This document shows, one piece after another, positions 4,364 through 62,731 of a DNA stretch of 64,000 nucleotides. The DNA is from an uncultured virus (IMG/VR IMGVR_UViG_3300025133_000070). Taxonomy: Duplodnaviria > Heunggongvirae > Uroviricota > Caudoviricetes. The position numbers and the translations under genes were made by a program. The stretch lies in the IMG/VR virus record IMGVR_UViG_3300025133_000070. The stretch is one strand, 5' to 3'. The notes below the pieces were generated by a model. That model ran no database searches and was not told the DNA's origin. It was given only the letters and a program-made list of their open reading frames with translations. Numbering within the stretch: position 1 is the first letter of the stretch; each line of letters starts with the position of its first letter.

Positions 4364-4557
4364 TTTTTTATTGGACACTTTTCAGTATCCATCTTAGTTT
4401 TATACTTTAAAACACAACCACAAAGAGAACAGAGGTTAGAAGAGTTGTGTTCACATTTCATACAGATATTCATCCGTTGTTCAGCAGTTAGAGAAACCCT
4501 ACAGCCCCCAATACACCAGCAATATAGTGCTTTTATAAATCTAAATATTTTCTCCAT
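4357..4557 (-). CDS. Small Cys-rich protein of unknown function
   Basis: RMNICMKC...CSLCGC...KCPIKKW pattern common in phage small proteins; tightly packed in the operon. Confidence 0.7.
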   Translation of the reverse strand: MEKIFRFIKALYCWCIGGCRVSLTAEQRMNICMKCEHNSSNLCSLCGCVLKYKTKMDTEKCPIKKW

Positions 4558-5242
4558 TAGTACATAAGGCTTTCCAACTTACAGGAAACAGTGATTCCAT
4601 GATTGTTCCAATCGCTTTCGCAAATTCTTGTGTCTCCTGTTGAGTATGCTCTTCAGTCCTCAGTTTATATAGGTGATGCCACCCAAGAAGGGTTCCTGTT
4701 GTAACTGTAGTAGTAAACATTGCCTGGGGTAGGACCATCCTAGCTTGTTCAGGACACACTCCAAGCTCAAGTAACCTCTCATAAACTTCTGCTATTTGGC
4801 AATACAAATCATCAACTTTCTCATCTACAATAATAGAATCCTCAGTAGGCAACCTATCTTTACTGCTTCCCTGCTTTACATTATCAGCCCTTGGCCTCCA
4901 CTCATCCGTTGTGGGGTAATGAAACTCTGGGTCTGAATCAATATATCTACGAGATACCTCGCTCCAAGAGAACCCTACCTGATGTTTACCTAGCTGACGC
5001 AGTACGAATAAAGGCGCGACGATGCGTAAAGTACATACAGGATGACGGAAAGGCAGTAGATGTCCATGCTCTGCCAGATAGTTGATAAGTTTTGTATCTG
5101 TTTTGTGATCAAATATTTCATGTGTCTTATCAAAAGAACACCTCGCTGAATTTACAACAAGCAAATCACCATTACAGGTGTTGCTCATAGGCTCTACTGA
5201 GCCCTTGTGCAATATATGTTTTACTTCCAAAAGGTCCACCAC
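4541..5242 (-). CDS. thyX: FAD-dependent thymidylate synthase
   Basis: VNSARCSF, GHLLPF, RQLGKHQ...SEVSRRY (variant of RHR-x7-SxR), EQARMVLP, LR...Q.E. Confidence 0.93.
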   Translation of the reverse strand: MVDLLEVKHILHKGSVEPMSNTCNGDLLVVNSARCSFDKTHEIFDHKTDTKLINYLAEHGHLLPFRHPVCTLRIVAPLFVLRQLGKHQVGFSWSEVSRRYIDSDPEFHYPTTDEWRPRADNVKQGSSKDRLPTEDSIIVDEKVDDLYCQIAEVYERLLELGVCPEQARMVLPQAMFTTTVTTGTLLGWHHLYKLRTEEHTQQETQEFAKAIGTIMESLFPVSWKALCTNGENI

Positions 5243-5604
5243 TTACTAGGGTTAAGATAATGTCTAGCTCGTTTTAATTTTTGTACATCATCATTAAAGC
5301 CACCCAAACCCCTGTTACAAGAATGACATAACCAACCTCTGAACTGTGCGGTTTTATGATCATGATCTAATACCCACGAACCAATCCTAACACCCCCTAA
5401 ACCCTTCACCTCTTCTTCATTTCTTAAACAAATAGGACAAACATGATCGGCAGGAGCAACTCCGTACTTCTTTTTTAATTCTCTTCGCTCTTTATTAAGT
5501 CTATTGGTACACTTCTTGCACTCTGGTCTTAGGAAATTAGCTCCGCTATGTCTACCGAACGCTGAGTTGTCAAGGTCTTGTAAGCATTTATTACATTGTT
5601 TCAT
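5221..5604 (-). CDS. Endonuclease VII-family HNH nuclease
   Basis: CPIC...LDHDHKT..RGWLCHSCNRGLG, plus an N-terminal CxxC/CxxC pair. Confidence 0.9.
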   Translation of the reverse strand: MKQCNKCLQDLDNSAFGRHSGANFLRPECKKCTNRLNKERRELKKKYGVAPADHVCPICLRNEEEVKGLGGVRIGSWVLDHDHKTAQFRGWLCHSCNRGLGGFNDDVQKLKRARHYLNPSKWWTFWK

Positions 5605-6686
5605 AGAATAGGAATCCCATTATCAAAAGTTACTTCTTTACCATCTCCAAAGGACTTACCGACCTCTGCATCAATAGCAAGAGGTACATCAAAATGAATA
5701 TTAAAAATTTCCTTGATCAGCGGATAATTAACCATTTCATCGTATAGAATCTCCAGTGTATCCTTCACCTCTTCTTGAGGACATACAATTTCAATCGAGT
5801 CATGTACCGTAGCTACAGGTTTAGCTTGCAGTCCAGCAGCCTCAAACCTTCTGGATGCTCCTAGAAGAGAGGTAAGAAGTATGTCAGAGGCTGCACTTTG
5901 GATAGTAAAGTTCAGTCCCTGCCTCAACGCTCTGTTAATGACCGAGCGATCCCTACTCACCACATCAGGCAGGTTACGTTTGCGACCAAAGATAGTGTAA
6001 GCATACCCATTAGTTTTAATAAAGTTGTTAACGAAGTCCATGTATTCAAAGATTCCTGGGTACACATTCTCATAATCTTTAATAATCCTCTCGGCTCTCC
6101 GCATAGGAATGCCCATCGTCTCACTTAAATTGAATGCACCTCCCCCGTATACAATAAGAAAGGAAACAGTCTTGGCAATTTGCCTCTCAGTCTTACTAAT
6201 TTTTTCTTTATTGAACAGAAGCTTTGCAGTGTAGGTATGAAGATCAGCACCTTGATTGAAAGCTAATTGCATATTCCCTTCCTTGGCAATATGAGACAGG
6301 ACTCGTAGCTCCATTGCTGCATAATCAGCAGCAATAAACGCCCAGTCGTCAGGGGCTCTGAAAAGGCTCCTGATGTTGTTTTTAGTTTCTCGGGGTAGTG
6401 TGTGGAAGGACACTCCCATTGCCTTCTGAGCGTTGTACGCAGCGCATGAGAGCCTCCCAGTTGCAGTACCATCAAAGCGGAAGTCTACAAAGACTTTATT
6501 GCGCTCATTATAAGCAATAGCATTCTTTGTTCCATCAATATAAGTCTTGGTTAGCTTCTCAGATTTACGAAGATCTAGCAACCCTTTCAGGAATTTCTTA
6601 GCTTCCACCAAATCTTCTGTGGTCTTTGACGCAACAACAGACTTGCTTACCTTTTTCCCTTCGTCTCTATGCTGCCATTTACCCAC
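5601..6686 (-). CDS. polA: Family A DNA polymerase, catalytic (fingers/palm) fragment
   Basis: TATGRLS, motif A ADYAAMELR, motif B RQIAKTVSFLIVYG, TIFGRKR, NFTIQSAASD, motif C VHDS; GTG start with GGAG upstream. Confidence 0.95.
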   Translation of the reverse strand: MGKWQHRDEGKKVSKSVVASKTTEDLVEAKKFLKGLLDLRKSEKLTKTYIDGTKNAIAYNERNKVFVDFRFDGTATGRLSCAAYNAQKAMGVSFHTLPRETKNNIRSLFRAPDDWAFIAADYAAMELRVLSHIAKEGNMQLAFNQGADLHTYTAKLLFNKEKISKTERQIAKTVSFLIVYGGGAFNLSETMGIPMRRAERIIKDYENVYPGIFEYMDFVNNFIKTNGYAYTIFGRKRNLPDVVSRDRSVINRALRQGLNFTIQSAASDILLTSLLGASRRFEAAGLQAKPVATVHDSIEIVCPQEEVKDTLEILYDEMVNYPLIKEIFNIHFDVPLAIDAEVGKSFGDGKEVTFDNGIPIL

Positions 6687-7158
6687 GGCTTTCTAACTCC
6701 GTATCAATATGTTCAAGAAGTAGTTTAAGAGTAGGTGCAGAGACCGAAGGTTTTCCTTTGGCTGTTTTGTCAGGAGGATAAAGTTCCATACCACCTTCCC
6801 TGGTGTAAAGGATTTCAATTAAATCATTGTTGGAGGATAAATTATCAGTCTTCGTAACACTCTTACAAGTGTATAGAAAATCCTCCTCGTCCATATTAGT
6901 AGATCGCAACTGCTTACCTACAGAATCTAGCGTGGACAAGTCTACATCCAACCCATTATACTCCATCTCTGCGAAAGTTTCAAGAGAAGGCATAACAACA
7001 TTCTCAATAAGTTTCATAACAGGTTGTCCATCTAACCTTTCCATGATAAGGTCGAAGAGCTTAAGGGTAAAGTAGGTATCCATCGCATTGCCTTCACAGC
7101 AATCAGATAGATCCATGTTCGCCCAATCAAATTTACTGGGGTTATCAATTGTTAACAT
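6679..7158 (-). CDS. Family A DNA polymerase, middle fragment (ExoIII plus thumb start)
   Basis: GNAMDTYFTLKLF (ExoIII-like), MEYNGLDVD, NLSSNNDLIEILY, KTAKGKPSV are typical PolA exo-end and thumb segments. Confidence 0.85.
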   Translation of the reverse strand: MLTIDNPSKFDWANMDLSDCCEGNAMDTYFTLKLFDLIMERLDGQPVMKLIENVVMPSLETFAEMEYNGLDVDLSTLDSVGKQLRSTNMDEEDFLYTCKSVTKTDNLSSNNDLIEILYTREGGMELYPPDKTAKGKPSVSAPTLKLLLEHIDTELESRG

Positions 7159-8180
7159 TAGAGATCCTCCAACTCATTGGCGAAATACAGTTTAGTTAAG
7201 TCCATCAAACTCTTGGGCATGTTCTCATCCAGAAGGTGGTGCATGATCTTAGTGTCCCAGACATTCTTAGTATAGATTCCATAGTTAAGCAAGAACTTGA
7301 GATCGAACTTAGCATTGTGAAAGACCTTCCTATTCTTAGGATTCTCTAAGATGCGGCGAAGAAGAACCCAAACCTTAGCATAGTGTGGTTCTCCCTTTCG
7401 GAAAGGACTATCTTTATGATCCAAAGGAAGCACCCAAGTCTGCTCTTTAGAAGTAATAGAGATTGTCATAATACTATCCTTCAAAAAATTCAGACCTGTG
7501 GTTTCTGTGTCAACTGCTATCGTTTCATAGGAGTCCCATAGCTTCTTTGCTAATGCCTCGACCTCTTCGATCTGCGTGAGGACTTTATAGGTAAAGTTCC
7601 CTTTAACTCTTTTGCCAAGTACATATTTTTCATATGCATTTTGGATGTCTGTTTTGAACAGGATTGTGTGGCGAGGCTCCTTAATACAGGAGTAAGGATG
7701 AAAAATAGGCACAACGATACAGCGATGCCCTCCAGTAGTGATATATTCATAAGATTTTCCTCTCTTGCTTGTGATGCCACTCTTCTTGATCAGCATCTTC
7801 ATGGCTAAGTTCCCACAAGGGAACACTAGTTTAGGCTTTACCTTATCTATGGTGGCCTCTAGGTGGACGCGACATAACTTCATATTGTCTGGGGTCATGT
7901 CTGCTTCTTTAACAGAGGGACACTTGACAGACGCAGCTAACCTATAACTTTCTTTGTAACACTCATCAATGAGAGACACCTCTGCCTTAGAGAAGGGTGC
8001 AATGGTTCCCAACCTATAGTTAAGGGAATCAGACAGAAATAAGACAGGTGCTTCTCCAAAATCCTCATAATCCATAACCGAATGGCATGGTTTACTTTTC
8101 TCCAGAATGGAACACCCCTCACATAAAGGATTATCCCCATGAGTTTTGTGTCCTGCGTACAACTTATCGAGATCGAACAT
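7158..8180 (-). CDS. Family A DNA polymerase, N-terminal fragment: UDG-like Fe-S domain plus 3'-5' exonuclease (ExoI, ExoII)
   Basis: CEGC, SVKC, KLC, KPKLVFPCG and PIFHPY of a family-4 UDG-like fold; AVDTETTGL (ExoI); FHNAKFDL (ExoII); WDT. Confidence 0.88.
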   Translation of the reverse strand: MFDLDKLYAGHKTHGDNPLCEGCSILEKSKPCHSVMDYEDFGEAPVLFLSDSLNYRLGTIAPFSKAEVSLIDECYKESYRLAASVKCPSVKEADMTPDNMKLCRVHLEATIDKVKPKLVFPCGNLAMKMLIKKSGITSKRGKSYEYITTGGHRCIVVPIFHPYSCIKEPRHTILFKTDIQNAYEKYVLGKRVKGNFTYKVLTQIEEVEALAKKLWDSYETIAVDTETTGLNFLKDSIMTISITSKEQTWVLPLDHKDSPFRKGEPHYAKVWVLLRRILENPKNRKVFHNAKFDLKFLLNYGIYTKNVWDTKIMHHLLDENMPKSLMDLTKLYFANELEDL

Positions 8181-8182
8181 GG

Positions 8183-8191
8183 CTATAATAG
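8183..8191 (+). promoter_or_regulatory. Putative -10 element (CTATAATAG) for a leaderless transcript of the gp55-like gene
   Basis: TATAAT 5 nt before ATG 8195 with no SD; the same motif recurs at 9243, 12488 and 62723. Confidence 0.6.
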
Positions 8192-8194
8192 GGT

Positions 8195-8536
8195 ATGAAT
8201 AATCATTACATAGACAACAAGAGATTTGAAGAGATCATCCTATTATACCAGCAAGACCCAGAAACTTACGAGGATGATCTAGTTTCTTTATTTGATCTGC
8301 TAATCACCAACATAATCGAGTCTTTTAGATTCAAAGTAGACCCCGATGATGCGAAACAAGAATGCTTTGCCTTGGTTCTTAAGACAGTAAAGAACTTTAA
8401 GCCACGCAAAGGGACAGCCTTTAACTATTTTACAACCATCATAGTTAACAATCTAAAACTGCTGTACACTAGGAACAAAAAATACAATCAGAAAATAGAA
8501 AACTATATTGAAAGAAAGAAGGATGATTTTATTTAA
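8195..8536 (+). CDS. gp55: Late-transcription sigma factor, T4 gp55-like (short)
   Basis: HYIDNKRF...DDAKQEC...KNFKP...AFNYFTTII match gp55-family hallmarks (HYVNN, AFAYFT). Confidence 0.75.
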   Translation: MNNHYIDNKRFEEIILLYQQDPETYEDDLVSLFDLLITNIIESFRFKVDPDDAKQECFALVLKTVKNFKPRKGTAFNYFTTIIVNNLKLLYTRNKKYNQKIENYIERKKDDFI

Positions 8537-8849
8537 TCCTAAGGTTCTTCATCACCATAGAAAGGTAATCCTCTGAATGAATCCCTCTTTTGTTTAGGCG
8601 TACAAGCTGAGGAAGCTTCGTTGTGTTATATATAACAAAGCTGTGGGGCATACGAAAGCTGTCCACGATGTAAAGGGGCTGTCCTTGCTCAACATCTTTA
8701 TACTTTTCTCTGAGCTTGGACAACAAAACATTAGAGTGCTTGTCCCACAAAGAAATAAATAGAATATTGATAGGAGACCTATCTCTCTTGTAAGTTCGAA
8801 TGATCTTATTAAGATCGTTTTCCTTTTTAAGGAAATGTAATTTGTACAT
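8529..8849 (-). CDS. Hypothetical protein, possibly a thioredoxin-like fold without CxxC
   Basis: ILFISLWDKHS...YIVD...LPQLVRL pattern; TAATG coupling with the upstream gene. Confidence 0.5.
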   Translation of the reverse strand: MYKLHFLKKENDLNKIIRTYKRDRSPINILFISLWDKHSNVLLSKLREKYKDVEQGQPLYIVDSFRMPHSFVIYNTTKLPQLVRLNKRGIHSEDYLSMVMKNLRIK

Positions 8850-9238
8850 TACTCTTCGTATTTTTGAGGACTATCGGACGGGAGACCAGAAAGATCATGT
8901 TCCATGACCGCTGATTCTGCTAACCTAACCTCACCATCCTCATTCTCAATGACAGTAATGCCAGACGCAGCGAGTTCCTCTTTGTTCTCTGAGGCGTACT
9001 TCTGTACCATATCAGAAAGCTGTTGGTTAAGTGTCTCAATACCTGTTACGAAGACTGTCTTAATAAAAGCCTCGTCCGTAATTTCTTGAGGTTTGCATAC
9101 ATCTGCAAAGTTCTTGTAGGCTATTGCCTCATCTTTCGAAAGTTTAACTTGTAATTTCATACGATTTCTACTCCGCTCATCTATACGGATTCTCCATTTA
9201 TTGACATCTAGCTTAATACTTGTTTGCTCGGGATCCAT
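8849..9238 (-). CDS. Hypothetical protein
   Basis: 129-aa ORF preceded by the CTATAATAG motif. Confidence 0.65.
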   Translation of the reverse strand: MDPEQTSIKLDVNKWRIRIDERSRNRMKLQVKLSKDEAIAYKNFADVCKPQEITDEAFIKTVFVTGIETLNQQLSDMVQKYASENKEELAASGITVIENEDGEVRLAESAVMEHDLSGLPSDSPQKYEE

Positions 9239-9242
9239 TTAA

Positions 9243-9251
9243 CTATTATAG
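9243..9251 (-). promoter_or_regulatory. Putative leaderless -10 element CTATAATAG
   Basis: Minus strand reads CTATAATAGttaaATG (ATG at 9238). Confidence 0.55.
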
Positions 9252-9266
9252 TATAGGTAATAAATT

Positions 9267-9779
9267 ATGGAAGACAATTACGATTTTTCTGCGTTGAAAA
9301 AAAAGAAGAGGGTAAACAGCAGGGCTAAAGGCTCTACCTTTGAGAGGTCCATAGCCAAGACACTTAATGATAGATTCAACACCACAGAATTTTCAAGAAC
9401 TCCTGGGTCTGGTGCGTTCGCCACCACACACTCTCTTCCTGACCACCTTAAAATTTATGGGGACTTGATCACACCATTAAACTTTAAGTATTGTATAGAA
9501 TGCAAGAAAGGATACAATAAAGAAAACTTATATAGTATATATAATTATAGTTCAGACACCTGGAAATTTATAGAACAATGTGAAAAAGATTCGGAAAAAT
9601 GCCAGAAGACACCAATGGTAATATTTAAACAAGATAGACAAAAAACCCTGGCTATAGTCCCCTATAATAGTTTATATAAATCTAATAACTACATAGAGAT
9701 ACATAAAGAAGAAAAAACATACAGAATATATCTATTTGATGATCTTCTTAAAGAGCCTGACTACTTTTGGTTTGATTAA
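9267..9779 (+). CDS. Phage PD-(D/E)XK Holliday junction resolvase
   Basis: NSRAKGSTFER...RTPGSGA...GDL...IECK...PMVIFKQDR. Confidence 0.8.
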   Translation: MEDNYDFSALKKKKRVNSRAKGSTFERSIAKTLNDRFNTTEFSRTPGSGAFATTHSLPDHLKIYGDLITPLNFKYCIECKKGYNKENLYSIYNYSSDTWKFIEQCEKDSEKCQKTPMVIFKQDRQKTLAIVPYNSLYKSNNYIEIHKEEKTYRIYLFDDLLKEPDYFWFD

Positions 9780-39959: not shown

Positions 39960-42900
39960 CAGTTGTCTATCTCCACGCTTGAAAAACTATAATAGTTTGG
40001 TTGTTGGTTGTTTGCATTCGTAGCACCCCAAGTTGGGCTTAGTCTATAATTCAATCTACTACCACCACTTACTTCCATAGTGCCTGATGTAATTGTAGCA
40101 TCTCTAGAAGCGAGGTTGGTAGCATACATCCCTGTACCTAGTCCCGCCAATCCATTATAGAACTTTAAAACATCCCTAAGTTGATCTTTATCTAGGTAAA
40201 GTTTATCTTCTGTTACAAAAGGTCTTAGAGGAATACCACTAGTGTCAACTCCATGACCTGTTCCGATACCAGTATTCTCTCTCTGGGTTACATCCTGAAG
40301 TTCAATAGAGTCTATCAAGAGGTACTTGTCTGGATTATTGTTAGGAACAAAGAAGACTTCCACAATGTAATTCGTGTCATCCCTATTCACTTGTGGAGTA
40401 ACCTCATAAACATCATTCTCCATTGGAATAATATCAAGATATTCAGAGTTATTATGGATAGTAAAGTTTCTAGTATCAAATTCTATTTCAAAGTTTTCGA
40501 AATAGCTATCCTTAATATTTAGAAGAGTATTATTATTTAGAACTTCAGAAGAGTCTGAAGTATTACCTAAACAGAACTCCTCCTCTGTAGGATAAGTCTT
40601 AACTGGGAAATCATACAGATGGGCTAGAGATTTCTTAACTGCTGGTAGAGATAAATCCCCTTCCTTTGTAACTTCCCACTTTCCGTTTGGAGTCCAGGAC
40701 CACATATATCCTGGTGGGTTTTCTGGTTCTACAATCTCAGGAACAAACTTAAACGGGGTTGGACCCATATTGGTTCCTTGTTTATATTGTTCAAGCTGTG
40801 GCCCATAGAATCTCATTTTCTTTCCTTGGATGTTTGTGTGGTATCCTTTTTTATCCATATACCAAACAAAACCCATTTGGTCTCCCGCCAAAGTGTATGA
40901 GGGATCCACATCAGAAGATTTCAGTCTACCCCACAGTCTCCACCACCCATCTCCTGCATACTGTTCCCCTGATTCTATCGCAGTATTTTGTCCAGGCATA
41001 TTGTAGTCATCGTTACTGCCATTGCCATATCTTTGAGGAACCCCATTAGCATCAAAATACCACCCCCAATAGTTAGAAGCTGCGGTAGGATCAGCATCTT
41101 CGTCATAAAAATTAAAAGTTACCCCACTCGTCCCATCCGTCATATCCCGCTTAATATACATGGATGCTACCCACTCGGTAGTTTTGTCAGGATCAATTGC
41201 TGCGCTAAGATTATTAGACCCTAGGAAGGTGTGTGTACCTGTGTCAGTAGTCATGAATTCCATCTCTATCCCAGATGTACCTGAAGCATAATTCCAATAC
41301 TTAGTAGCGAACTCTGGTGGACGATCATCTACTTGAACCCCAGTTCCCCCACCATTTAATTGGGCTGGATTACTTCTAATTCTAGCTCGTCCGTCATTTC
41401 CTGCCTGACCAGTATTTTTGGCTCCACGGTAATAATTGGTCCACATAAACTTGTTTTGGGAATATGGAGCCTTAGTATGAATCCATACACCTAGCTTGCC
41501 CCCTCCCAATATAGGAGAGTTTTCTTCAGCAACTAAAGACTTTACATTAAGTTTAAACTTGTGATCTTTAATAAATTGGTTGGGCCTATCCCCATACGAG
41601 GATAGATCAAATCTTAGTCTAGGCAATCCTCCAAGAGACTTACACTTAATGACACTGTTGTTAATTAAGAAATTCTCCATTCCAGGCACCGCATTAGAAG
41701 AATCTAATTTAAATACAGTAAACTGGTTAGCGTTAGGTGCCCCCGAAGTTTGGACAAACTCAATACCACTTAAAATATTTGCATTTCTAAACTCTGCATT
41801 GTAAGGAGCCCCTTCATAATAAATACAAGTATTTAAAGATGTGTCCCTGGAACTATTAGCAGAAACCGAAGTGTAAGTACCTGATAACGGAACCACTCCT
41901 TGACCTGGATATTCAGCGATATAAGTACCAGAAGCAGGGAGGTCAGCAGTCTTGTCACTATATGCTGCTACAGCACAAGTACTGAATACTCCTGATCCGT
42001 TAGTATTGGAGATTGGGACAACATTTGTACGGACACTGGAGGCTATGTAATTACCCCCTATAGTAGAAGCAGCATACCCAGTTAGATCAAAATCACAATT
42101 GTAGAGACCTTTACCAAACACTTGGGCAAAGATATTGCCTCCAGTCTTGTCAATCTCGTTCAAACCTAAAGGATGTTTAGCAAAATACTTACAATAGTCT
42201 CGATGAGCTTTCTGGAGTCCAGTACCGAAGCTAAAGTTCTCGTAGTCTGCAAAAGAGTTTAGAACAAAGCCACTAGCAATAGCTTCGTTAGCAAAGCTTT
42301 GTCTATTGTTCTTCCAATAAGCATCAGCAGCATAAGAACTAGAAGTTAAATTAATCTGTTCGTTAGCGTAATCATAAGCCTTAGATTCAAGAAGCTCATG
42401 CATGGTGTTATATAACTCAGGAACCTGACCTCTATCTACATACCTGTCTGTAGTAGAACCCACTTCTGGCATCTTGTTATTTGACCCAAGAGAACTTAAT
42501 CCCCTATAAGGATAAGTTGCGCTAGTATAAACTCCAGAGAATTGACGAGAAGAATCAAGCTTCTCACACTCATGCCAAACCCCTGATGGGTTGATGGGGT
42601 CAAGTATAGGATAGAACTCTCCTGCTGAAGGGACATACCCTAAAGTATTTTCTCCTCTGTCTATAACAGTAGGCACAGCCCCCTCCACAGCTTGATATGC
42701 AGTGGGACTAGTTTTATAACCTGTTCTCCATTGTTCTAATTGTGGGCCATAAATCCATAATCTGGTACTAGCAAGATCCTCATAATGTCCTACATATCCG
42801 TCGATATCTCCCATAATAATAAAATTGGATTCTAAATCTCCTTCTATAGTGTCCCCATCCAACTTCCCAAGACCAGCACAAGCAATACTACACCTGTACC

Positions 42901-62722: not shown

Positions 62723-62731
62723 CTATAATAG
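62723..62731 (+). promoter_or_regulatory. Putative leaderless -10 element CTATAATAG, back-to-back with a minus-strand TAGATA (62715-62720)
   Basis: CTATAATAGtgtgATG (ATG 62736). Confidence 0.55.

Follow-up and report, generated by a model that had tools for sequence, protein, structure and literature searches.

The whole stretch of DNA that was analysed, 64,000 nucleotides from an uncultured virus (IMG/VR IMGVR_UViG_3300025133_000070), is referred to below as the window. The region considered here contains three genes, A, B and C, whose coordinates are collected in Table 1. A sequence-only reading had described them as three abutting open reading frames (ORFs) with a GGAGG-type and a GGAG-type motif at their two junctions; the ORFs, which are on the minus strand, and the motifs are present as described. 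At junction 1, the TAA of A (7160-7158) shares its last nucleotide with the ATG of B (7158-7156); at junction 2, the GTG of C (6686-6684) and the TAA of B (6681-6679) lie within an overlap of 8 nt. The nearest in-frame stop lies five codons 5' of the ATG of B and two codons 5' of the GTG of C, as the same reading had noted in general terms; these distances were read from the window sequence together with locus L001, whose A, B and C proteins are 99-100% identical to those of the window. There is no intervening sequence between the pieces in the window. A Pfam search of A, B and C gave no intein or Hint match, which agrees with the absence of intein motifs claimed earlier, and an Rfam search of positions 4500-9500 gave no family at E<=1. 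The spacer upstream of A carries the palindrome CTATAATAG at 8183-8191, which is promoter-like with a near-zero leader; this motif occurs in 6 copies in the window, against 0.88 expected.

Table 1. Features of the split polymerase region, in coordinates of the window
Feature	Position	Strand	Description
Gene A	7158..8180	-	340 aa ORF
Gene B	6679..7158	-	159 aa ORF
Gene C	5601..6686	-	361 aa ORF, GTG start
Junction 1	7156..7170	-	GGAGG 7170-7166, 7-nt spacer, TAATG; A stop/B start overlap 1 nt
Junction 2	6679..6700	-	GGAG 6700-6697, 10-nt spacer, GTGGGTAA
UDG-like domain of A (residues 69-187)	7620..7976	-	Pfam and profile match to UDG structures
ExoIII segment of B, E22-G23-N24-A25-M26-D27	7078..7095	-	D27 corresponds to Klenow D501, G23 to Klenow Y497
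Divergent intergenic spacer, 14 nt	8181..8194	.	Between gene A and a sigma-70-region-2-like gene, 8195-8536 (+)

Protein A matches two Pfam families in succession: UDG at residues 75-169 (E 1.7e-6; 28.6 bits, cut-off 24.3) and DNA_pol_A_exo1 at residues 199-334 (profile positions 2-129 of 173, E 6.8e-23). A profile of A matches the UDG structure 4zbx with E 3.5e-13 and also matches 1ui0, and its residues 198-327 match residues 7-136 of the Klenow chain. Thus, a family 4 UDG-like domain precedes the exonuclease, as in UDG-PolA fusions. In A, C20, C23, C87, C103 and H161-P162 are invariant; the four cysteines may bind an Fe-S cluster, as those of family 4 UDGs do. Where family 4 UDGs carry GE(A/G)PG, A reads F48-L-S-D51-S52.

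Protein B has no Pfam match, and its profile matches residues 160-292 of the Klenow chain (E 4e-7), a span that includes the ExoIII aspartate. B thus covers the end of the exonuclease, namely its last helices and ExoIII, then the beginning of the polymerase domain and half of the thumb (the first), and it closes with a helix (residues 142-158). Protein C matches Pfam DNA_pol_A over positions 57-380 of 381 (E 1.2e-76), and its profile matches the large fragment of Bst Pol I (E 2e-55); it comprises the second half of the thumb, with a long helix at residues 23-60, the palm and the fingers.

The catalytic positions were followed through 42 sequences. ExoI (D224 and E226) and ExoII (D293 and F292) of A are invariant, and N289 is kept in at least 90% of the sequences; G23, N24 and D27 of B are likewise invariant. 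In C, the TGR motif (T76-G77-R78), motif A (D121, E126), motif B (R168, K172, F176, Y180, G181) and motif C (H295, D296) are all invariant. At ExoIII, where the unsplit relatives P0121, YungSlug (YAAAD) and RcKickapoo have Y-x3-D, the metal-binding aspartate is kept as D27 and the tyrosine is replaced by glycine, and this position is glycine in all split forms. The earlier claim that ExoI to ExoIII are spread over A and B is supported, with the amendment that ExoIII is non-canonical. Since the canonical ExoIII tyrosine is missing, proofreading activity is not assured.

The PHROG family phrog_17 (DNA polymerase) is matched in order by A (538-785), B (797-927) and C (928-1237). When mapped on Klenow and Bst, one cut falls between ExoII and ExoIII and the other falls inside the thumb. 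Judging from these profile alignments, A, B and C follow the order of a single family A DNA polymerase (PolA) of the UDG type, and the suggestion that the three ORFs together hold one complete PolA in the proper order is borne out on phrog_17, Klenow and Bst. In total, A, B and C have 860 aa; two relatives with an unsplit enzyme, P0121 and Bacillus phage YungSlug (891 aa), give a range of 809-891 aa.

C was used to scan IMG/VR, and 80 loci were kept out of 207 related stretches; these loci contain 51 distinct A, 51 distinct B and 55 distinct C proteins. Junction 1 is broken in all 72 evaluable loci, with the stop of A and the ATG of B at the homologous position, and junction 2 is broken at the homologous position in all 77 evaluable loci. 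None of the 80 loci contains a fused gene, and the identity of A drops to about 50% across the loci. Conservation of the two breakpoints among relatives, which had been proposed as a check, is thus found throughout this set. A DNA search of a phage collection with the region gave no match, and tblastn found only distant polymerases, at less than 36% identity, so that a close relative in culture did not emerge from this collection; the best matches of A and C there were SPO1-like Herelleviridae and Gordonia phages (about 26-35%).

Abutting ORFs can be made by single-base indels, and in one relative, L026, B is further disrupted, a break that could reflect gene decay or an assembly error. Both points would fit an artefact of sequencing or assembly, or a pseudogene in decay in a phage that uses another polymerase. 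Several observations make this explanation extremely improbable: the same breaks recur in every evaluable locus, in many metagenomes and across deep divergence; the catalytic residues are invariant; and each of the three pieces shows little amino-acid change next to saturated synonymous sites. All three genes are under strong purifying selection, with pN of 0.04-0.31 and (saturated) pS of 0.66-0.86 in 23 ungapped pairwise comparisons; another 3 of the 26 (those of A with L012 and L068 and of C with L073) were dropped because internal indels misaligned them. In addition, metagenome contigs (as distinct from raw reads) of four runs from four independent studies have no indels across the region, which answers at the level of contigs the earlier call for an indel check at the junctions. 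Both junctions are bridged by record 9 of X4, records 18 and 19 of X6 and records 24 and 26 of X8, and junction 1 by record 5 of X11. Because the arrangement recurs in every related locus examined and the four runs are free of indels, these comparisons argue that it is neither chance nor error. A second polymerase may nonetheless be encoded elsewhere in the phage genome, outside the part seen.

At junction 1, the 1-nt overlap of the window is found in 34 of the 72 loci, and in the other 38 an insert of 151-2287 bp, made up of unrelated genes that are often on the opposite strand, sits at exactly that point. For junction 2, 74 loci were compared: 56 have an overlap of 8 nt and a GTG start, 12 have one of 4 nt (ATGA), 5 have one of 23 or 26 nt, and the remaining locus, L026, is anomalous. 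Most loci have a frame relation of +1 between B and C and those of the ATGA type one of -1, and further overlaps also occur. Relatives with opposite-strand inserts carry a promoter-like TAWTATATAG-NN-ATG directly 5' of B.

These details bear on whether the ORFs are joined into a single chain by frameshifting or hopping, RNA splicing or protein trans-splicing. Phages are known for recoding, and each junction of the window has overlapping stop and start codons. Even so, we consider such joining very unlikely: the overlap at junction 2 varies among relatives, A and B are separated in more than half of the loci evaluable at junction 1, often by genes read in the other direction, and the start codons are conserved together with Shine-Dalgarno (SD)-like motifs. 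Inserts between A and B might be expected to be introns or to encode homing endonucleases; however, no Rfam family reached the gathering score in nine insert-bearing loci (97.9 kb in total), and 12 sampled insert ORFs matched no homing-endonuclease family. An intron-interrupted gene was rejected on these results and on the uninterrupted sequence of the window. A polymerase carrying an intein or split intein was rejected as well, given that no Hint or intein family is matched and that the combined length equals that of an unsplit homologue, leaving no space for intein halves.

A profile of B was compared with 1.84 billion representative proteins, which yielded 710 matches. The best 89 are all of 181 aa or less (standalone B proteins or fragments of B), the next 8, of 480-563 aa, begin at residue 1 of B and continue through C, and unsplit proteins follow. 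At two loci of this BC type, L083 and L084, an A-type gene ends at the same point and the synteny is the same. On this evidence, a form with two genes, A|BC, exists in syntenic relatives that are more distant, which is new here. Note that for 6 of the 8 proteins the label "two-piece" depends only on the protein beginning at the first residue of B. In a tree of the C region, the two-piece and three-piece forms fall in one clade (SH-aLRT 100), and the three-piece forms make up one clade (99) that is sister to P0090 (97); 2 changes suffice to explain the tree, and fewer would not be possible. The tree comes from a quick search with SH-aLRT as its only support measure, includes 21 of the 42 C rows and has several long branches. 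As read from it, the tree places a single fission at junction 1 first and a single fission at junction 2 later.

P0090, in which B and C are contiguous, also indicates where the second cut fell. Residues 1-158 of B correspond to its residues 1-166, and residues 2-361 of C to its residues 179-552. By this alignment of B and C to a contiguous relative, the second cut fell in a lineage-specific insertion that the thumb already had. The sequence-only reading had drawn attention to extra residues on both sides of junction 2 as possible docking helices. In the model described below the two sets are indeed in contact (B 141-158 and C 6-43), but since they are already present in the fused P0090 they were not born with the split.

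Structures were predicted with two different programs, AlphaFold2 for the single chains and ESMFold2 for the complex. Alone, B has a pLDDT of 59 and a pTM of 0.25, and in C alone residues 1-14 and 36-100 are below pLDDT 50. In the three-chain model, B has a pLDDT of 87 and the other chains 89-90. The ipSAE of the complex is 0.92 in all three runs, with at least 96% of contacts common to the runs, and the controls give 0.00, 0.00 and 0.64, the last being the control in which A was kept and C replaced; of 157 solved complexes, 116 attain the mark used for this score, and of 215 mismatched pairs, 2 do. Multimer modelling, which had been suggested as a check, therefore predicts confident docking. 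The predictor has been exposed to many PolA structures with one chain, and resemblance to these may contribute to the high score. The lowest predicted errors are found where the ExoIII helix of B packs on the ExoI and ExoII strands of A.

This packing also bears on the alternative that the three are separate proteins without a fixed 1:1:1 enzyme; for example, A might be regulatory or optional, and proofreading might be switched by the supply of A or by the promoter of B-C. A and B-C could be transcribed separately, because a promoter-like motif precedes B in the relatives whose inserts are on the opposite strand. The loss of the ExoIII tyrosine from all split forms and the location of all polymerase motifs on C are compatible with such an optional role. 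However, A is conserved equally with B and C and always adjoins them, its exonuclease strands receive the helix of B in the model, and neither B nor the head of C is predicted to fold alone. We regard this alternative as improbable.

The reading that we prefer, and which we hold to be very probably correct, is that the replicative PolA consists of three separately translated proteins that assemble into one enzyme with the shape of Pol I, as the result of two fissions. On sequence and model evidence it most likely works as a three-protein complex. A, B and C would assemble, probably during folding, into a UDG-type enzyme of SPO1-like architecture, to which A would give the carboxylates of ExoI and ExoII as well as the UDG-like domain, B the helix with the ExoIII aspartate, the connection between exonuclease and polymerase and the first thumb helix, and C the second thumb helix, the palm and the fingers. 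Since the parts are divided in this way, A and B would together form the proofreading site, and B and C the thumb. In the window, the stoichiometry would be set by translational coupling, through the overlapping stop and start codons and the SD-like GGAGG and GGAG inside the upstream coding sequences. The split would have arisen by two successive fissions at surface loops, the first between ExoII and ExoIII, giving the A|BC form that persists in the more distant syntenic relatives, and the second in the lineage-specific thumb insertion, giving A|B|C. The heterotrimer put forward by the sequence-only reading, with its proofreading site across two chains, is thus supported in silico, by the breakpoints, frames, inserts, selection, residues and model.

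A bolder extension of this heterotrimer seems to us rather unlikely. It would make the enzyme an obligate three-subunit Pol I with a composite, altered proofreading centre, with loss of the ExoIII tyrosine and the first fission at one and the same node, and would make the A|B gap a landing pad that receives promoter-bearing cassettes of accessory genes, allowing switchable fidelity or module exchange. If it were true, separate transcription of A and B-C would let proofreading be tuned against synthesis, or polymerase modules could be swapped by recombination.

Textbooks present polymerases of the Pol I type as single chains. In a large clade of uncultured marine phages, by contrast, a PolA cut inside two structural units is kept under strong selection, and in the model two proteins contribute to an active site and two to the thumb that grips the DNA. 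The natural series of one, two and three genes could be used to study how an essential enzyme tolerates fission, and its split points, validated by nature, could be used in split-polymerase engineering. In addition, annotation and PolA marker surveys of viromes will miss or mis-size the split genes.

The source is an uncultured marine T4-like phage, a myovirus with a gp23-like capsid, and the three-gene PolA is shared by many relatives. A relative also occurs in a Prochlorococcus single-cell assembly, which is only a hint of the host. In the Prochlorococcus assembly, psbA/psbD (PF00124) matched a different contig, C2. Rhodothermus phage RM378, a candidate for a split PolA, was set aside after profiles A1, A2, A3 and PF00476 found nothing in NC_004735. 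S-TIM5-like cyanomyoviruses, considered as the lineage of the window phage, were set aside because their polymerase is described as mitochondrial-like, unlike the enzyme of the window (PMC10087341).

Several other replicases are split. Split family B polymerases are found in some T4-like phages and archaea, and in split-intein DnaE the halves are rejoined by an intein. These resemble the window in having a catalytic core encoded in more than one gene and presumably reassembled; they belong to different polymerase families, and the intein that rejoins DnaE has no counterpart in the window. A further case of this kind, also from a different family, is the minimal Pol III alpha of jumbo phages, which is encoded as two proteins (PMC7824862).

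Within PolA, UDG fusions are described for SPO1 and its relatives and for N4-like phages (PMC10201439). These enzymes have the same order as the window, that is, a family 4 UDG-like domain, the 3'-5' exonuclease and the polymerase. However, the UDG-PolAs of SPO1 and N4-like phages are single chains with the canonical Y-x3-D at ExoIII, whereas the window has three chains and G-N-A-x-D. Marine podoviruses related to Zobellviridae have a PolA in two pieces, rather than the three of the window, with an unrelated small ORF between them; the authors leave open whether this insert is an intron, and it resembles the junction-1 inserts in relatives of the window phage (PMC10580990).

Our literature searches, which covered the main text of openly accessible papers, found no description of a three-gene PolA, nor is one described in the passages covered of PMC10201439. 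Within this scope, the closest published case is the two-gene, exonuclease|polymerase split of PolA in S-SBP1-like and S-TIP37-like T7-like cyanophages (Czernecki et al. 2023, NAR, PMC10201439; PMC12695635). There, the authors call the S-SBP1-like split the first seen in PolAs, dismiss frameshifting and report a predicted complex that superposes on a one-chain relative (PMC10201439). That split and the split of the window are both natural fissions, conserved in a clade, and in both the resulting genes are neighbours that overlap, the start codon lying 5' of the stop. They differ in that the S-SBP1-like enzyme belongs to the T7-like cluster, has Tyr at position 3 of motif B and is cut once, at the exonuclease/polymerase boundary, into two genes, whereas that of the window is a UDG-fused PolA, has Phe176 at that position and is cut twice, inside structural units, into three.

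The polymerase of the window is spread over three genes, A, B and C, whose ORFs abut one another on the minus strand (see the table). At junction 1, the A|B cut, GGAGG (7170-7166) is followed after 7 nt by TAATG, in which one base is common to the stop codon of A and the start codon of B. At junction 2, the B|C cut, GGAG (6700-6697) is followed after 10 nt by GTGGGTAA, and the GTG of C is placed 8 nt before the end of the B stop codon. The nearest in-frame stop upstream lies 5 codons before the B start and 2 codons before the C start. The three abutting ORFs, both junction layouts and the stops a few codons before the downstream starts had been described in the sequence-only reading, and the window sequence gives the same coordinates, overlaps and spacers. 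At its end, C overlaps an Endonuclease VII / HNH-type gene by 4 nt (5601-5604), and this gene is followed by ThyX.

Coordinates of the features discussed in the text
Feature	Sequence	Position	Strand	Remarks
Gene A	window	7158-8180	minus	340 aa, ATG start, ORF listing
Gene B	window	6679-7158	minus	159 aa, ATG start, ORF listing
Gene C	window	5601-6686	minus	361 aa, GTG start, ORF listing
UDG-like domain	window	7620-8180		N-terminal part of A, which contains the domain
Endonuclease VII / HNH-type gene	window	5221-5604	minus	Pfam E 5.5e-15
ThyX gene	window	4541-5242
Sigma-like protein gene	window	8195-8536
CTATWATAG	window	8183-8191
CTATWATAG	window	9243-9251
CTATWATAG	window	62723-62731
CTATWATAG	window	39987-39995
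CTATWATAG	window	9662
CTATWATAG	window	17453
Y-E-x-I-G-E-S-I-W-x-T-Y gene	L003	4512-5504	minus	others in further loci
Y-E-x-I-G-E-S-I-W-x-T-Y gene	L008	5031-5495	minus
Y-E-x-I-G-E-S-I-W-x-T-Y gene	L026	4021-5202	minus
Y-E-x-I-G-E-S-I-W-x-T-Y gene	L064	3240-4735	minus
Y-E-x-I-G-E-S-I-W-x-T-Y gene	L037	4158-5138	minus
Broken B gene	L026	5590-5957

Pfam assigns UDG to residues 75-169 of A, DNA_pol_A_exo1 to its residues 199-334 (covering only profile positions 2-129 of 173) and DNA_pol_A to C (profile positions 57-380 of 381), while B has no Pfam match. All three products match phrog_17 (DNA polymerase) in PHROGs, colinearly at 538-785, 797-927 and 928-1237. For the search of solved structures, profiles were built from 42 sequences per piece (A1 for B, A2 for A and A3 for C). 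The A profile matches the family-4 UDG 4zbx at residues 69-187 and Klenow chain 7-136 at residues 198-327; residues 9-145 of B match Klenow chain 160-292, ExoIII Asp included; and C corresponds to Bst Pol I chain 262-575 at residues 23-348 and to Klenow chain 301-585 at residues 33-322. Because the profiles map in this way, the first cut is placed, by alignment, within the exonuclease domain and separates ExoII from ExoIII. On the Klenow chain the second cut lies between residues 292 and 301, and on the Bst chain between ~245 and 262; by the subdomain limits of the two enzymes, we take this place to be the thumb. In the predicted folds, B has a terminal helix (142-158) and C a long helix near its start (23-60); the two are in contact in the complex model, which is consistent with the thumb placement. 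As a separate observation, the UDG-like domain of A has invariant C20, C23, C87, C103 and H161-P162 and is without a recognisable GE(A/G)PG-type motif at the position where family 4 UDGs carry it.

A scan of IMG/VR with C gave 207 related stretches, from which 80 loci with 68-99% identity to C were kept and examined by local tblastn and ORF tracing. Both breakpoints proved to be conserved. The stop of A at query residue ~340 and the ATG of B at residue 1 are found in 72/72 loci with A and B, with a 1-nt overlap in 34 and 151-2287 bp inserted in 38; the stop of B and the start of C are at the homologous place in 77/77 loci with B and C. Of the 74 loci in which B is complete, 56 have an overlap of 8 nt at junction 2, 12 have one of 4 nt (ATGA) and 5 one of 23 or 26 nt, and L026 is anomalous. 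Distinct proteins number 51 for A, 51 for B and 55 for C, and their identity to the window goes down to ~50%, ~54% and ~67%, respectively. Among the outcomes that the sequence-only reading had named as speaking for a single gene are a contiguous gene in all close relatives and single-base indels at the junctions. No fused gene occurs among the 80 IMG/VR loci, and Logan contigs of 4 runs from 4 studies cover 5500-8300 with zero insertions or deletions and bridge both junctions. Whole or in part, the stretch is present in 23 runs (22 studies), which their records all describe as marine metagenomes; 3 of them may be the source sample. The frame of C relative to B varies with the clade, being +1 in most and -1 elsewhere, and a conserved frameshift signal joining B and C would not be compatible with this.

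Two relatives deserve separate mention. In L026, a 67-kb relative, B is broken further, with residues 1-88 and 108-143 in different frames and a shifted start, which points either to decay of this copy or to a fault in the assembly. QCKN01000003.1, a 130,604-bp contig, has a three-gene polymerase whose B is 55% identical. Because it belongs to the single-cell assembly of Prochlorococcus sp. AG-409-P03, there is a hint that at least this relative infects Prochlorococcus; the sole psbA/psbD-type match in that assembly is on another contig.

Invariant positions in the split genes include the carboxylates of ExoI (D224 and E226), ExoII (D293) and ExoIII (D27 of B); the TGR motif and polymerase motifs A, B and C do not vary either. 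Across 23 usable ungapped comparisons, non-synonymous differences amount to 0.04-0.31 per site against saturated synonymous sites (0.66-0.86), which indicates purifying selection; 3 further comparisons were dropped as misaligned. The ExoIII Tyr position is an invariant Gly (G-N-A-x-D) in three-gene forms and Gly in all two-gene relatives inspected; Y-x3-D is kept in three unsplit relatives. One of these, the distantly related 1247-aa DNA polymerase of Rhodobacter phage RcKickapoo, has an insertion of ~300 aa straight after TGR that looks like an intein, because in the alignment its first residue is Cys and its end, just ahead of the following conserved block, reads ...HN.

To trace the origin of the split, the B profile was searched against 1.84 billion representative proteins, giving 710 matches at E<=1e-3. 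The best 89 of these are all <=181 aa (standalone B or fragments). The next 8, of 480-563 aa, begin at the first residue of B (MLT...) and continue through C (the fused form BC), and after them come unsplit polymerases, such as the 809-aa P0121. For two BC proteins the phage contigs could be identified (L083 and L084). Both share the synteny of the window, and their A-type genes, 330-332 aa long, end at the same point as A; one of the contigs has a 92-aa ORF between the A-type gene and BC. For the C region, a maximum-likelihood tree was built from 21 of the 42 C rows, 8 two-gene and 13 unsplit proteins, by a quick search with SH-aLRT support only and the root on an unsplit protein. All forms in two or three genes fall in a single clade (support 100), and within it those in three genes are a clade (99) sister to P0090, the closest BC protein (97). 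Two changes, as few as there can be, explain the gene arrangements on this tree. The likeliest history is a single fission at junction 1, which would have given A|BC, and then a single fission at junction 2, which would have given A|B|C.

Residues 1-158 of B align to 1-166 of P0090 and residues 2-361 of C to 179-552, so the 'extra' residues flanking junction 2 are, on this alignment, a basic thumb insertion predating the cut. As to the suggestion that they may act as docking interfaces, the B and C segments touch in the model. As a single chain, B gives a poor prediction (pLDDT 59, pTM 0.25), and C on its own has residues 1-14 and 36-100 below pLDDT 50 with confident palm and fingers. The three chains (residues 190-340 of A together with C and with B, the partner that was scored) were folded with ESMFold2, a predictor other than that of the single-chain folds. 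The multimer modelling proposed earlier gives confident docking, with an ipSAE of 0.92 in 3/3 runs against 0.00, 0.00 and 0.64 for control complexes (the last with A kept and C replaced), a modelled score that shows likeness to one-chain PolA and not binding, since split-gene halves can pass the test by resembling solved one-chain structures. At least 96% of contacts are shared among runs and B reaches pLDDT 87; in the benchmark, the ipSAE mark was reached by 116/157 solved complexes and 2/215 mismatched pairs. The lowest-error contacts are between the ExoIII helix of B (28-35) and the ExoI/ExoII strands of A (222, 243, 286-288, 308-310). Taking model and sequence together, a heterotrimer of A, B and C appears well supported.

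Introns or homing endonucleases as the inserts between A and B are ruled out by Rfam, which finds nothing in nine insert-bearing loci, and by family searches, in which 1/12 sampled insert ORFs has any match (a GT2 glycosyltransferase). Opposite-strand genes make up many of the inserts and encode very basic low-complexity proteins with an N-terminal Y-E-x-I-G-E-S-I-W-x-T-Y, in one to four tandem copies. This family has no Pfam or PHROG match; in many relatives it sits exactly at the A|B junction, and it is absent there in the window. The remaining inserts consist of a lipoprotein-like gene or of short ORFs on the same strand. Loci with opposite-strand inserts have a conserved TAWTATATAG 2-3 nt upstream of the B ATG. 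A shorter form of this palindrome, CTATWATAG, occupies the 14-nt spacer that separates A from the divergent sigma-like gene and recurs at the other divergent gene pairs of the window. The window as a whole has 6 copies against 0.88 expected (0/100 shuffles reach 6). Three copies are in very short spacers of divergent pairs (8180/8195, 9238/9267 and ~62706/62736), 2-15 nt from start codons. The palindrome may serve as a promoter in both directions, with transcripts that would have almost no leader, and the sigma-like protein of the phage perhaps takes part in its recognition; if so, A and B-C would be separate transcription units in relatives with opposite-strand inserts. Beside contigs of the window type, run X8 has a variant contig that departs from the window sequence at 7143 into a TAWTATATAG-type motif, so that insert-bearing and insert-free forms co-occur.

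The window is a tailed-phage genome, with genes for tail sheath, baseplate, a gp23-like major head protein, RNR, SbcCD-like, ThyX, Endo VII, primase and DnaB-like helicase; its capsid protein is ~30% identical to T4-like cyanomyovirus capsids. Its polymerase belongs to a known kind, phage PolA enzymes whose gene has undergone natural fission. Full-text searches outside subscription journals and supplements gave no account of a PolA in three genes or of one cut within the exonuclease and the thumb. Notable here are where the cuts lie, how widely they are conserved and that a two-gene intermediate survives. Two-gene polymerases are noted in OM43 phages in PMC10580990. In Czernecki et al. 2023 (PMC10201439), UDG-PolAs are described as single chains, whereas the window enzyme has three genes. 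The two-gene exo|pol split PolA of the same paper, a split that serves as a clade marker in PMC12695635, is like the window polymerase in having overlapping genes, and frameshifting, dismissed by its authors, is argued against in both.
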